Notes: generated by a model not told the origin, from the letters alone. A stretch of DNA of 64,000 nt from a virus (IMGVR_UViG_3300025168_013778:360-64359), one strand, 5' to 3'; shown: positions 55,885 through 61,074, counted from the first letter of the stretch. Made by a program: numbers and translations.

Positions 55885-56322
55885 ATGAAATTATCCATGT
55901 TTGATTTTGACAATACCTTGGTCAAAACACCGTACGAAGATAGTCCTTATCTCGACACAAAAGAAAGTTTAGACTCAGAAAAATGGGAGTTTAGCTTTAA
56001 TAAAGAAACAGTAAAAAACTATTTTAATGAGTTAAACGAAAAAGAAGTTGTTACTGTTTTATTAACAAATAGAATAGATAGTGTTAAAGAACAGGTTATG
56101 TCTATACTTAAAACTAAAGATATTAATTTTAATGAAGAATTATTTATATTAGGAAAAGACGGTGATAGGTCTAAAGGTAAGAGGGTTGAAAGTTTGATAA
56201 AAAAGTATCCTGAAACTACTGAGATTGAGTATTGGGAGGATAAAGACAAACACATAGATGATGTAGTTAACTACTGTAAAAAATACCCAAATATTAAATT
56301 AAAAGTTAATAAGGTTATTTAA
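55885..56322 (+). CDS. HAD-family phosphatase (RNA-repair/PNKP-phosphatase-like)
   Basis: 'MFDFDNTLVKTP', 'LLTNR', 'YWEDKDKHI'; start reassigned to ATG 55885. Confidence 0.75.
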   Translation: MKLSMFDFDNTLVKTPYEDSPYLDTKESLDSEKWEFSFNKETVKNYFNELNEKEVVTVLLTNRIDSVKEQVMSILKTKDINFNEELFILGKDGDRSKGKRVESLIKKYPETTEIEYWEDKDKHIDDVVNYCKKYPNIKLKVNKVI

Positions 56323-56980
56323 TTTTTTCTATGTTATCAGATGGTCTATCTGATAAATCAATTAATTCTTTATTGTCGACGGTCCACACATTATCAAAAA
56401 TAGGTATCATATTTCTCATATTATCTTTAACTTGTTGATGGTATTGAGCTACCATTTCAGGTGGTAAACTTCTAGGTCTTTCATCGTTTCTAAGTTGTGC
56501 GAGTTCTAAAGGTGTTCTAACATACACTAAAGTTGTGTTAAAACCATTTTCTTTGGCCAACCCATGTACTTCCTTCATTACTTTTTCTTGCCCACCACCA
56601 GCGTCATATACAACATTAACTGATTGATTTCTTTCTTGTTCTAAAAACTGTTTTAAAAATTTTACTGTCAGGTTTTTTGGGTCGGACGTTGTGTAAGTCA
56701 TGTCTAAGATTTGTTGATACCCTTCAGGTGTAGATATATTTTCCTCCCACTCATCACCCCATAATTTTTTTGCTGTCATAACCCTAACCTGGTCAACATT
56801 AAAGTTTTTAACATTATCTAAATTAATTAGGTTATTAGTTATAAAACTTTTACCAGCTCCTGGACCACCAGCGATAACCACAAAATTATTGTTTGGTTGA
56901 TTAAACCCAATAACTTTTTCCTCCAACAACAATGTTGGTGTTGTTTCCTCTCTTAATATTTTTTTAATTAAGTTTCTCAT
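56315..56980 (-). CDS. P-loop kinase (AAA_33/zeta-toxin/PNK-like) with N-terminal leader
   Basis: 'IAGGPGAGKS', 'VVYDA', 'A..RN.ERPRSLP'; leader MRNLIKKILREE. Confidence 0.8.
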   Translation of the reverse strand: MRNLIKKILREETTPTLLLEEKVIGFNQPNNNFVVIAGGPGAGKSFITNNLINLDNVKNFNVDQVRVMTAKKLWGDEWEENISTPEGYQQILDMTYTTSDPKNLTVKFLKQFLEQERNQSVNVVYDAGGGQEKVMKEVHGLAKENGFNTTLVYVRTPLELAQLRNDERPRSLPPEMVAQYHQQVKDNMRNMIPIFDNVWTVDNKELIDLSDRPSDNIEKIK

Positions 56981-57240
56981 TATCGAGTTTTTAGGTATTG
57001 GATTATTGTCTCTACCATTCCAGCATCAAAAAACCTACTATCAAACTCACCTATTACTTCATATTCGTCTGGTTTAGGTCCTTCAACACTTATCGATTGT
57101 GGTGAATCATAATATAAAACGTATTTTGGGTGGTCGTATCCTTCGATATATTCCATCACTATTTCTCCACCCCTATATTCCTCTCTGGAAAGTTCGTCTA
57201 TTTTGAACTCTTGTAGTAATTTTTTTATTTTCTTTCTCAT
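56980..57240 (-). CDS. hypothetical protein with N-terminal leader
   Basis: Likely start MRKKIKKLLQE at 57240. Confidence 0.6.
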   Translation of the reverse strand: MRKKIKKLLQEFKIDELSREEYRGGEIVMEYIEGYDHPKYVLYYDSPQSISVEGPKPDEYEVIGEFDSRFFDAGMVETIIQYLKTR

Positions 57241-57241
57241 G

Positions 57242-58729: not shown

Positions 58730-59536
58730 ATGCTGAATGAAGAAATAAAAAGAATTAAGTCTCTCATGATAATAAGAGAGCAAGAAGAGATGAATTTATC
58801 GTCTTATTTGGATTCTACTTACTTAAAAACACCAGAACAAGCGGGTATTGGTGAAGAAGAAACAGACGTAATAATATTTGATACAATTAAAGATGCCATA
58901 GAACATAATATGAAGTTAGTTATGATAAGGCCTGAGTATGTTAAAACAGCTCGTGAATTCATAGATAGTAAAGGAGCTAATGTGTTAGTTGGTACCGTTA
59001 TAGGTTTTCCTAATGGTGATACTGGTCAGGGTGCTAAAATGGATGAGGCTATAAAAGCTATAGAGGATGGGGTGGATGAATTAGATTTTGTTGTAGATTA
59101 CAAAGCTTTTAAAAATGGTGACCTAGATACAATCATGAAAGAGGTTAGTGAAGGAACAGCTATTGGTATAGCAGATGGAAAGGCTGTTAAGTGGATTATA
59201 GAATCAGCAGCTTTAAATGACGAAGAAATAGCTGAACTTACAAGATTAATTAGTAAAATAGTGATAGAAACAGTTGGTCAGGAAAAAGCTAGTAATGTTT
59301 TTGTTAAAACGTCAACAGGATTTTACCAGTCCGATGACGGTAGACCAATAGGTGCAACACCAGAAGCGGTAAGTATTATGAAGTCCAACTCTGGACCTTT
59401 ACAAGTTAAAGCGTCTGGTGGTATTTATAGTAAAGAAGACGCTGAAAAAATGATAGGGGCGGGTGCAACTAGATTAGGTACTTCTGCCGCTAAAGATATA
59501 ATGGTTGGGAATAAAATAGATAATACGGAATACTAA
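58730..59536 (+). CDS. deoC: deoxyribose-phosphate aldolase
   Basis: 'YLDSTYLK', 'TVIGFPNG', 'DELDFV', 'KWIIES', 'FVKTSTGF', 'VKASGGI', 'GATRLGTS'; leader MLNEEIKRIKSLMIIRE. Confidence 0.93.
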   Translation: MLNEEIKRIKSLMIIREQEEMNLSSYLDSTYLKTPEQAGIGEEETDVIIFDTIKDAIEHNMKLVMIRPEYVKTAREFIDSKGANVLVGTVIGFPNGDTGQGAKMDEAIKAIEDGVDELDFVVDYKAFKNGDLDTIMKEVSEGTAIGIADGKAVKWIIESAALNDEEIAELTRLISKIVIETVGQEKASNVFVKTSTGFYQSDDGRPIGATPEAVSIMKSNSGPLQVKASGGIYSKEDAEKMIGAGATRLGTSAAKDIMVGNKIDNTEY

Positions 59537-60420
59537 TGAGAAATAAAATTAAAAATCTTTTAAGAGAATTCGAAGAGAATAAGAATACCGCATATGATGA
59601 AATTTACTCACTACCTTACAATTTAAGGAGTGAATTACAAAACCAATTAGAAATGTTGGTTTCTGCCGACCAAACTATGGATTTAGAGGAAATTGAGTAC
59701 GGTGGTATACCGGAGTTAAAATCTTCTGGTAACATTTTTAACCAAATAAGTAAGTGGTTTAAGAGGTACTTAACAGATAAAGCTTCTGATTTTTTAATTA
59801 ATGCAAGTGCAGATGAAATGCAAGACACCATAAAAATGTTAAAAGTTCTTGACCCTAAAGATATGAATGGAATCTTTGAACCTAGAGCAATGTATTTGGG
59901 TGGTGGTATTGATTTTGCCACAGACGCTTTATCTTGGAGAACAAAAGTAGAGGATTATTTTGGTGAGGGACACGTAGTTAAGGGTACTAGGTTATTAGAC
60001 TTGGTAACTACAGGTACAATGGACTTTAAGGGGTTAGAGACACCGGCAATATTAAATCCTTTAAGAGCTGAAACAGTAAGGGATGAAGATGAAGAATTCC
60101 AAAACCTTTTTAAAGCGTGGAAAGCTAATAAATTAACAGGTGAGCAGTTTGAGGTGTTTAGGGAAAAAATTAGAGAACAAATTGTTGTACAAGATTTATA
60201 CATGTTAAAAGTTTGTGACACTAACTTAATTAATTTTGATGGTACTGCTGGTGCTGGAACGTTTGGTGAAGCACAGGTTAGTGCATTAAAAAATTCACAA
60301 GTATTTATTTGGTTAACTAATGGAATGAAAATATCAAATATTTCCCCATGGATGATGCCTTCTATAACTAAGATATTACAAGAAGATGAATTATTTCCTT
60401 TTTTAGCCAACTTTAAATAA
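59536..60420 (+). CDS. nucleoside 2-deoxyribosyltransferase / nucleotide N-glycosidase-like protein
   Basis: 'MYLGGGI....SWR', 'LNP', 'DL..L..CD', 'GAGTFGEA' with catalytic Glu; leader MRNKIKNLLRE. Confidence 0.65.
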   Translation: MRNKIKNLLREFEENKNTAYDEIYSLPYNLRSELQNQLEMLVSADQTMDLEEIEYGGIPELKSSGNIFNQISKWFKRYLTDKASDFLINASADEMQDTIKMLKVLDPKDMNGIFEPRAMYLGGGIDFATDALSWRTKVEDYFGEGHVVKGTRLLDLVTTGTMDFKGLETPAILNPLRAETVRDEDEEFQNLFKAWKANKLTGEQFEVFREKIREQIVVQDLYMLKVCDTNLINFDGTAGAGTFGEAQVSALKNSQVFIWLTNGMKISNISPWMMPSITKILQEDELFPFLANFK

Positions 60421-60423
60421 AAG

Positions 60424-61074
60424 ATGCCTTATAGAATAAAAAAACATACATTGTCTGAAAGTGTTAATCAAAATCGATTAATACTGTTGGATGTTGACGA
60501 CACAATTCTTAAACCGTCACAAATCTACATATATAGAAATTTACCAACAGACTCTAGTGAGGTTAAACTTACCCCGTCGGAGTATGCTCATGAAAATGTT
60601 ACAGAAGAAAATAAAAACTATTACGACTATAGAGACTTCTTAGACCCAATAAAAATAAAAAGGTCAATATCCCAAGCAGAACCAATAATATCTAACCTAT
60701 CAATCATGGACGACCTTTTATCTAGAGGTTATCAATTAGGTATTTTAACAGCTAGGTCTTCTGAAGACGTAGTTTTTAAGGGATTAAAGGATTGGTTAAT
60801 GTATAAAGATAAAGATGGTAAGTTAATCCCTATTGGTGATAAGTTAAATAGAGAAAATGTATTTGCTGTTAATGACACACAAAGGGTTAAGGGGTTAAAG
60901 GGTGAAACTGACTACGATAAAAAAGCTGAGGTGATGGAGTCACTATTAGAAGTGTATGATGAAATATTATTTATAGATGACGACATTAAGAACATTAAAG
61001 AAATGAGAAGGCTTAAAGGAAGATTATCAAGAGAACTAAATAATAAGCTTTTTATAAAGCATGCTTTATATTAA
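60424..61074 (+). CDS. HAD-family phosphatase
   Basis: 'LLDVDDTIL', 'ILTARS', 'FIDDDIKNI'. Confidence 0.8.
   Translation: MPYRIKKHTLSESVNQNRLILLDVDDTILKPSQIYIYRNLPTDSSEVKLTPSEYAHENVTEENKNYYDYRDFLDPIKIKRSISQAEPIISNLSIMDDLLSRGYQLGILTARSSEDVVFKGLKDWLMYKDKDGKLIPIGDKLNRENVFAVNDTQRVKGLKGETDYDKKAEVMESLLEVYDEILFIDDDIKNIKEMRRLKGRLSRELNNKLFIKHALY

Follow-up and report, generated by a model that had tools for sequence, protein, structure and literature searches.

Interchangeable N-terminal leader peptides in an uncultured marine T4-related phage lineage are candidate capsid-targeting propeptides

The 64,000-nucleotide stretch IMGVR_UViG_3300025168_013778:360-64359 (the window) is nearly all of a 64,359-base viral contig with 31% G+C and about 20% completeness by CheckV, and belongs to an uncultured marine giant phage related to T4. 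Unrelated proteins encoded in the window and in related phages begin with one of several short leader peptides. The tags are genuine additions to these proteins; they are modular, confined to N-termini and specific to viruses. The leaders, of about 11-20 residues, appear to be amphipathic helices closing in hydrophobic-[LI]-x-E, and with moderate confidence they are read here as cleavable capsid-targeting propeptides like those of T4. The propeptide reading is considered the best one because it explains together the N-terminal restriction, the closing Glu, the position at domain boundaries and the exchange of leader classes. It likewise accounts for the lack of leaders on tail and replication proteins, for the upstream motif common to leader genes and structural genes, and for the occurrence of the right protease family in the lineage.

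Four unrelated proteins of the window begin with M-R-x-x-I-K-[KN]-[IL]-L-[RQ]-E, termed class A: a P-loop kinase, a protein of 86 amino acids (aa), an Fe/Mn superoxide dismutase (SOD) and a 294-aa protein resembling nucleoside 2-deoxyribosyltransferases (NDT-like protein). The core pattern [IL]K[KN][IL]L[RQ]E occurs four times in the six-frame translation of the window, always at residues 5-11 of an open reading frame (ORF), and all four ORFs start with M/V-R (kinase, 56980, minus strand; 86-aa protein, 57240, minus strand; SOD, 58673, minus strand, GTG start; 294-aa protein, 59536, plus strand). A profile built from 12 leader N-termini, which include the window's four and make the test partly circular, finds exactly these four on the contig at E<=10 among 5 candidates scored. 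The same contig scan leaves four other proposed carriers unmatched: a deoxyribose-phosphate aldolase (DeoC), a 244-aa basic protein, a WYL-like protein and a 216-aa HAD-family phosphatase (HAD216). The leader is also absent from the recognizable replication and tail proteins of the window.

The original prediction had placed a single leader on the kinase, the SOD, the NDT-like protein, a hypothetical protein, DeoC and a WYL protein, with weaker cases in a HAD phosphatase and in the 244-aa protein starting at 57976. The shared leader holds for the kinase, the SOD, the NDT-like protein and the 86-aa protein, but DeoC and the 244-aa protein bear two other leader classes that recur in relatives, so at least three classes had been merged. 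The WYL and HAD cases are weak, as both proteins keep only hydrophobic-hydrophobic-x-E within the first 20 residues. The identification of a leader-bearing WYL protein is not sustained, the Pfam WYL score being 17.8 bits, under the 21.8 cut-off. HAD216 also escapes the class-A profile. It has about 16 extra N-terminal residues containing L-S-E12, and in 5 of 5 loci its orthologues carry IISE, LLSE, ILKE or LLVE 5-8 residues before the DxD motif despite diverged N-termini. The leader had been expected not to be equally common on replication proteins, and those recognizable in the window indeed have none.

The kinase is held by seven IMG/VR loci, of which the longest record (G001) is 232 kb, about 72% complete and has 246 ORFs. 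N-termini were compared all-against-all and the resulting patterns were then written as short regular expressions. In G001, 70 of 30,135 N-terminal pairs score at least 33, versus 11 of 17,020 internal pairs. Four classes emerge, with the consensus MKxLIKKILRE for class A, KIKLTExxLxxLIExVxKE for class B, LSExEKxRIRxLH followed by [LI]-x-E for class C, and LNExxNRIKxLM followed by [LI]-x-E for class D. The four patterns hit 25 of G001's 246 ORFs and 5 of the window's 74. None of these 30 matches is internal; every one falls in the first 30 residues of its protein, a stretch that accounts for 10% of all residues. By eye at least 34 leaders are seen, and one class-D-like stretch lies inside an 868-aa protein beside the G001 capsid gene. 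The hydrophobic-[LI]-x-E ending occurs at a rate of 0.0179 per residue at positions 9-13 and 0.0030 elsewhere, a difference of about sixfold.

The leader is also specific to viruses. The 20-base string coding for IKKILRE has 67 copies in IMG/VR, some of the records being loci already counted, and 58 of these copies lie 3-7 codons past the start of an ORF of at least 50 aa (52 of them at exactly 4 codons). These 58 N-terminal copies precede 17 unrelated cargo clusters. The same string has 31 copies in 596 Gb of bacterial and archaeal genomes, and 4 of them satisfy the same loose start rule. Of these four, three are situated 100 or more codons into open frames. The remaining one (L105) belongs to an assembly, G006, that has ten profile matches and an S77 prohead protease on one contig, so this copy is probably phage DNA. 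The string stands at a true ORF start in the cellular genomes essentially once. The wider profile scan called for by the original prediction found class-A matches in three further viral records of large size (15, 9 and 1), and Pelagibacter phage HTVC008M had none.

Alignment to solved enzymes indicates that the leaders are add-ons of about 20 residues to enzymes of cellular type. The SOD matches Sod_Fe_N (6.2e-15), Sod_Fe_C (3.9e-41) and 153 solved SOD sequences at E<=1e-20. In the best alignment residue 4 of the solved chain falls on residue 24 of the phage protein, and in others residues 3-7 fall on residues 26-30. Since solved-SOD residue 4 aligns to residue 24, the canonical enzyme begins at about A21, right after L-V-E20. 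DeoC begins with MLNEEIKRIKSLM..IRE, has a Pfam score of 27.8 bits against a cut-off of 23.8 and matches 38 solved DeoC sequences, the best at 6.1e-26 over residues 21-261. The native Met of a solved bacterial DeoC (5dbu) aligns to M21; residues 1-20 were therefore fused before a retained ancestral Met. The Pfam domains start at residue 30 in the SOD and residue 34 in the kinase. It had been predicted that the enzyme domain starts after the leader and that cellular homologues lack it, and both expectations agree with these alignments.

For the kinase, an alignment of 45 orthologues shows no variation at E20 or K22 and conservation of at least 90% at M1, I5, E12 and E21. M-[KR]-x-L-I-K-x-I-L-x-E-E-L-L-x-E-E-K is the usual beginning among 120 orthologues with 79% identity or more; at least 6 have a variant starting MNLRE and 1 has a leader of the DeoC type (class D). 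The junction hydrophobic-hydrophobic-x-E-[ED]-K stays fixed while the leader class changes. G001 has no free-standing kinase gene; the kinase there makes up the C-terminal domain of a 1787-aa protein (L013:5839-11202; G001 45839-51202) with the junction RLLRE-EKVVGF, and the HTVC008M homologue starts MIPFILKE, which puts I-L-K-E just ahead of the P-loop domain. The 1787-aa protein has no other Pfam family, and a 1319-aa ORF headed by ATATTTAT lies just upstream of it.

Other cargo is similarly flexible. The 244-aa protein has the leader pattern M.IKLTESQVKKL, and its orthologues in two related records (L005 and G001) carry class A in place of class B; leader classes are thus exchangeable on one cargo. 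Its conserved domain (residues 35-80) is common to T4-like cyanophage proteins, with 391 matching phage records. The homologue in Synechococcus phage S-B68 is annotated 'structural protein, T4-GC0119', which fits an association with the virion. The 86-aa protein starts 2 nucleotides (nt) past the stop of the upstream gene, and its orthologue in another related locus (L004) begins MKALIKKILNE. For the 294-aa protein, ESM Atlas structure neighbours of residues ~117-294 carry PF05014 (TM 0.75-0.82 by target), and there is no Pfam match at E<=0.01, including PF05014 and PF15891, and no PDB sequence match at E<=1.

Many leader genes share an upstream motif, ATATTTAT, with structural genes, as had been proposed. 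The motif is non-coding in 13 of 16 window copies and in 44 of 67 copies in G001, a genome whose DNA is about 96% coding. Its distance to the start codon ranges from 8 to 56 nt; in the window, the sheath, tube, SOD, DeoC and 244-aa genes, among others, have it 12-50 nt upstream. Genes headed by it include those for sheath, tube, baseplate and neck-like proteins, further large genes and many leader genes, and it does not stand ahead of recognizable replication genes. In G001 the leader-by-motif table (13/12/28/193) has an odds ratio of 7.5 (p=1.5e-5). The SOD and DeoC operons share one palindromic copy, and the 244-aa gene has its own. In the window, the genes at 37392 (motif region 37342-37391) and 57976 have the motif 4-5 nt before the start. 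If ATATTTAT is a -10-like element, transcripts of such genes would have almost no 5' leader. The T4 late-promoter word, TATAAATA, was also tried and dropped; its 20 window copies are close to the composition estimate and only some lie upstream of genes.

The arrangement at the DNA level could suggest that the shared 5' block is a nucleic-acid device, either a homology patch for cassette exchange in a hyperplastic region or an A/T-rich initiation context suited to very short 5' leaders or both, with the peptide as a by-product. The cassette between the sheath and tube genes varies among relatives, with other leader-bearing genes swapped in; the kinase and SOD leaders are almost identical in DNA; and ATATTTAT stands exactly 5 nt before the ATG of 9 G001 genes, 6 of which are leader genes. 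However, leader codons vary synonymously at conserved residues in 5 orthologues (AGA/CGA/AGG, TTA/CTA/CTT/CTG, GAA/GAG), and therefore the peptide, not the RNA, is under selection. The four peptide classes share one architecture, their hydrophobic and charged positions are conservatively replaced, and the peptide motif is retained when 1-5 extra codons precede it. A nucleic-acid role is the least probable of the explanations weighed here, and could be a secondary benefit of the leader, not an alternative to it.

Class A has hydrophobic pairs at residues 4/5 and 8/9 and Glu at 11, and closes with L9-x-E11 in 12 of 12 aligned leaders; the other classes close with I-K-E, L-T-E or I-R-E. By inspection, the leaders alternate Leu/Ile pairs with Lys, Arg and Glu. 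An AlphaFold2 model of the kinase with 45 close orthologues is poor (mean pLDDT 46), and only a helix at residues 2-12 is usable. Just upstream of its head module G001 encodes a full-length Hsp70 (2.3e-254; L016:1041-2897) and a ClpB/ClpA-like AAA+ ATPase (L015:18675-20000).

An amphipathic helix of this kind might instead be a docking or handling tag for a partner outside the capsid, neither removed nor packaged. Examples would be the recruitment of a chaperone (the phage Hsp70 or the Clp-type ATPase) or a helix for oligomerization or tethering by which phage enzymes are brought together inside the infected cell. Hsp70 favors a hydrophobic core flanked by basic residues, and the leaders have Leu/Ile pairs flanked by Lys/Arg. 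Both candidate partners are encoded in G001, and many cargo types are ordinary cytoplasmic enzymes. However, a docking tag leaves unexplained the near-invariant closing Glu of each class, the placement at domain boundaries, the restriction to N-termini, the link to a structural-gene motif and the leaderless tail proteins. It is the most serious rival to the propeptide reading and is judged unlikely.

The tagged G001 proteins include a wall hydrolase with M23 peptidase, PG-binding and SLT domains, VanY, PAP2, CarboxypepD_reg, DeoC and SOD proteins, and most have no family. Several of them (the wall hydrolase, VanY, PAP2 and CarboxypepD_reg) are envelope-type enzymes that lack signal peptides, and the leader could be an unconventional envelope or periplasm signal for action on the wall at entry or lysis. 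A further match of the kinase is to Zeta_toxin, whose members act on a precursor of the cell wall. Against this, the leaders are charged and, by inspection, do not show the hydrophobic core, about 10 residues or longer, that follows the basic N-region of Sec, Tat and SAR-type signals, and genuine signal peptides of another type are present in the same G001 genome. For the SOD, DeoC, kinase and HAD enzymes the substrates are cytoplasmic or ATP is required. Wall enzymes would likewise reach the envelope if ejected from the head, so the cargo list fits the propeptide reading equally well, and the envelope explanation seems improbable. The wall hydrolase, which carries leader A, matches PHROG 342, 'internal virion protein with endolysin domain'.

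A protease of the expected family is found in the lineage. Peptidase_S77, the gp21 family, was found in 3 of 5 and in 2 of 5 related records, and the family has an invariant L14-x-E16 near its own N-terminus. The head genes of G001 are in T4-like order: portal (PF07230), three small ORFs, the protease, a 473-aa acidic scaffold-like protein and a Gp23-type major capsid protein (PF07068, 5.4e-71; 5e-26 to solved T4 gp23). The mature N-terminus of T4 gp23 aligns between L-F-E51 and I-N-E60 of this capsid protein. A complex prediction with the G001-type protease and kinase residues 1-45 scored 0.00 in both runs and had no controls, so it is evidence neither way.

The closest known system is the T4 capsid-targeting sequence (CTS), which functions in targeting, cleavage and ejection. 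According to the account of gp21 processing in PMC9026906, T4 gp21 cleaves after L/I-x-E, the first ten IPIII residues are enough for packaging, IPIII residues 4 and 7 serve targeting and 8 and 10 processing, and propeptides of giant phages contain redundant cleavage sites. As in IPI-III, Alt and the core proteins of T4, a short N-terminal peptide closing in L/I-x-E stands on unrelated proteins (PMC9026906, PMC3012670). In size the two come close, with 10 residues in T4 and 11 up to the first Glu in the present leaders; the residues relevant to processing are P3 and P1, a gp21-family protease and the T4 head gene order occur in relatives, and the cargo set differs between relatives. Unlike the T4 CTS, the leaders have another sequence, at least four classes instead of one and tens of tagged proteins instead of a handful. 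The cargo includes the metabolic enzymes SOD, DeoC, kinase and phosphatases, and some proteins have a second site about 9 residues on. Changing the corresponding Glu to Asp prevents processing in T4. Every sequence-level consequence of the originally proposed CTS model that could be tested agrees with the data, since the leader is an add-on, is specific to viruses and to position, ends in [LI]-x-E, shares the upstream motif and has a gp21-family protease in relatives.

Other phages offer partial parallels. In the large phages phiKZ, 201phi2-1 and SPN3US many head proteins are cut after Glu by a diverged gp21 homologue; the motif there is S/A-x-E, and the treatment of these phages drawn upon from PMC9026906 describes no stereotyped shared leader. 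Unlike that group, the present lineage has T4-type Gp23 and portal sequences. The 'moraphages' are a metagenomic lineage of large aquatic Bacteroidota phages, mainly from fresh water (PMC12619734). Together the window and G001 share with them, as far as that main text lists, a gp19 tube, sheath, gp25/gp6 baseplate, gp13 neck, major capsid protein, portal and prohead core protease, and also a sigma factor, PhoH, dUTPase, a ClpA-like protein and, in some, DnaK (PMC12619734). The full-length Hsp70 and the ClpB/ClpA-like ATPase of G001 agree with the chaperones reported for moraphages. The likeness is one of gene content, and unlike the moraphages the homologues found here are largely marine. The main text of PMC12619734 has no occurrence of 'N-terminal' or 'superoxide', and the leaders are undescribed there. 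No description of such leaders in marine or metagenomic phages was found in the main texts of the literature searched.

In P-SSM4 (L123, 154314-155116) the adjacent unrelated genes PSSM4_157 and PSSM4_158 both start MLSFK, one of them MLSFKAYLAE, and an HTVC008M protein (L120) starts MLSFTGYSNLSE. P-SSM4 thus resembles the present lineage in having neighbouring unrelated small proteins that share an N-terminal peptide closing in L-x-E, together with T4-type heads. The T4-like marine phages may each have their own CTS-like leader.

In the proposed mechanism, tagged proteins would be made late, alongside the structural proteins, and the leader helix would dock the cargo into the prohead scaffolding core. 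Cutting by the gp21-family protease would follow, after E11 and, for the SOD and the kinase, a second time at the domain boundary (E20). The processed enzymes would be retained in the head and delivered to the next host together with the DNA. A broader form of this model is put forward more tentatively: in an abundant marine T4-related lineage, interchangeable 'zip-code' propeptides of at least four classes would load dozens of proteins, 10-14% of the gene set, into the capsid, so that a ready-made enzyme set reaches the next host. This cargo would comprise the SOD, the Zeta-like kinase, the DeoC/NDT-like/HAD deoxynucleotide-catabolic trio and multi-domain wall hydrolases. Under this model each leader class could assign its cargo to a particular site within the head or to a particular turn in ejection. 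Such a set may be the originally proposed metabolic or counter-defence kit.

Several points weigh against the propeptide reading. The lineage is uncultured, no virion proteome of it was found, and late timing, core binding, cleavage, virion retention and ejection are all steps that we infer; the late timing of the ATATTTAT units is taken solely from the genes they precede. The window's own contig, at about 20% completeness, has no head module, so the CTS idea borrows its protease from relatives. Of the 10 related records, 5 yielded no S77 protease; since all ten are fragments (an estimated 22-71% complete), this absence is uninformative. The four class patterns were derived from the same data on which they were scored, and [LI]-x-E alone is short, with a background of about 1.2% per residue. 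The second LLVE/LLLE, predicted to be frequent, is present in the SOD and the kinase but is not general, as only 6 of 58 IMG/VR leader-A proteins have such a site in residues 12-30. In the kinase, hydrophobic-hydrophobic-x-E-E-K travels with the domain in the G001 fusion and in HTVC008M, and may be part of the fold or a release site. The leaders have no evident sequence likeness to the MLSFKAYLAE-type N-termini of P-SSM4. The tagged share of the ORFs would make a very large packaged proteome, and the CCA-adding-like enzyme, DeoC and PAP2 among the cargo have no obvious use inside a virion.

The leader genes of the window lie in a 6.8-kb insert that separates the sheath gene from the tube gene (Table 1). 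They form two tightly packed divergent operons (56315-61074) leaving from a 56-bp region; the minus-strand operon holds the SOD, 244-aa, 86-aa and kinase genes and the plus-strand operon the DeoC, 294-aa and HAD phosphatase genes. DeoC, the NDT-like protein (a possible N-glycosidase) and the HAD phosphatase thus stand in one operon (58730-61074), which could degrade deoxynucleotides to base, acetaldehyde and glyceraldehyde-3-phosphate.

Table 1. Location and characteristics of the leader-bearing genes, their neighbours and the divergent control region in the window.
Feature	Length	Coordinates	Strand	Characteristics
WYL-like protein	122 aa	35539..35907	-	N-terminus MKLNNTLKTLLLE, only loosely leader-like
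Tail sheath	1207 aa	50775..54398	+	PHROG 23, 4e-54; left cassette border; without leader; ATATTTAT 50 nt upstream
Second HAD phosphatase	145 aa	55885..56322	+	Pfam HAD_SAK_1 1.2e-10; DxD from residue 7; paralogous HAD phosphatase with no leader or extension, internal contrast
P-loop kinase (AAA_33/Zeta_toxin-like)	221 aa	56315..56980	-	Class-A leader, residues 1-11, MRNLIKKILRE; Pfam AAA_33 2.5e-10 from residue 34; second L-L-E20 directly ahead of domain
86-aa protein	86 aa	56980..57240	-	Class-A leader MRKKIKKLLQE; no Pfam or PHROG family
244-aa basic protein	244 aa	57242..57976	-	Class-B leader MQIKLTESQVKKLM; PHROGs 727, 38880, 7595
Fe/Mn superoxide dismutase	221 aa	58008..58673	-	GTG start; residues 1-20 are leader (class A plus L-V-E20)
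Divergent control region	56 bp	58674..58729	.	Palindromic ATAAATATATTTAT core; ATATTTAT on both strands (58705+, 58706-)
Deoxyribose-phosphate aldolase DeoC	268 aa	58730..59536	+	Residues 1-20 are class-D leader MLNEEIKRIKSLMIIREQEE
294-aa protein	294 aa	59536..60420	+	Class-A leader MRNKIKNLLRE; C-terminal part (~117-294) NDT-fold-like
HAD-family phosphatase (HAD216)	216 aa	60424..61074	+	PHROG 415, DUF2608; weak degenerate leader
gp19-type tail tube		61221..61709	+	PHROG 4542, 5.8e-28; right cassette border; without leader; ATATTTAT 43 nt upstream

Among the other genes of the window, Pfam and PHROG identify a family-B DNA polymerase, an SNF2-type helicase, PhoH and a dUTPase, and a weak sigma-70-region-2 protein is also encoded. 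Besides the sheath and the gp19-type tube, the structural genes include a T4-type baseplate hub. Compared with cultured phages, the kinase, SOD and DNA polymerase have only distant matches (<60% identity), and a common 66-aa leader protein has no match among them. Marine metagenomes hold very many close homologues, on contigs of up to 200-420 kb. A SOD match labelled 'Bacteriophage sp.' (H11) was set aside, as its annotated genes look bacterial.

The window also has several features outside the leader system. Sheath families match only the ends of the sheath (residue 8 onward and ~974-1205), and the roughly 900 residues between are an insertion. The gene just after the sheath (54410-55423) is conserved in position and varies from 94 to 463 aa among relatives. 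Its product has a very acidic middle and a Cys-rich C-terminus, with a class-B-like stretch, IKLTPNQFDRLLENY, at residues ~30-45, away from the very N-terminus. On the minus strand, 7485-30786 is a run of about 25 genes, of which at least 6 have Rossmann-type GxGxxG N-termini typical of sugar-nucleotide epimerases and dehydratases, together with glycosyltransferase-like proteins; it is a very large sugar-modification block for a phage. The dUTPase (30792-31421) has an N-terminal extension of 60-75 residues that begins in class-A-like fashion (MKDLINKLKDL) without the closing Glu, and its G001 orthologue bears a different extension.

Even if packaging is the wrong explanation, there is a virus-specific N-terminal code on tens of unrelated proteins per genome that is unexplained and easily testable. 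If the leaders do load the capsid, natural short, exchangeable peptides of this kind would be useful for placing foreign proteins in phage heads. If the propeptide reading is true, the tagged proteins would be candidate effectors of the first minutes of infection, acting in oxidative-stress protection, nucleotide breakdown, wall remodelling and as kinases. The T4 internal-protein principle, seen there in a few small proteins, would then cover a large cargo system of modular design, and genomes and metagenomes would show directly which proteins a widespread group of ocean phages packages and ejects.

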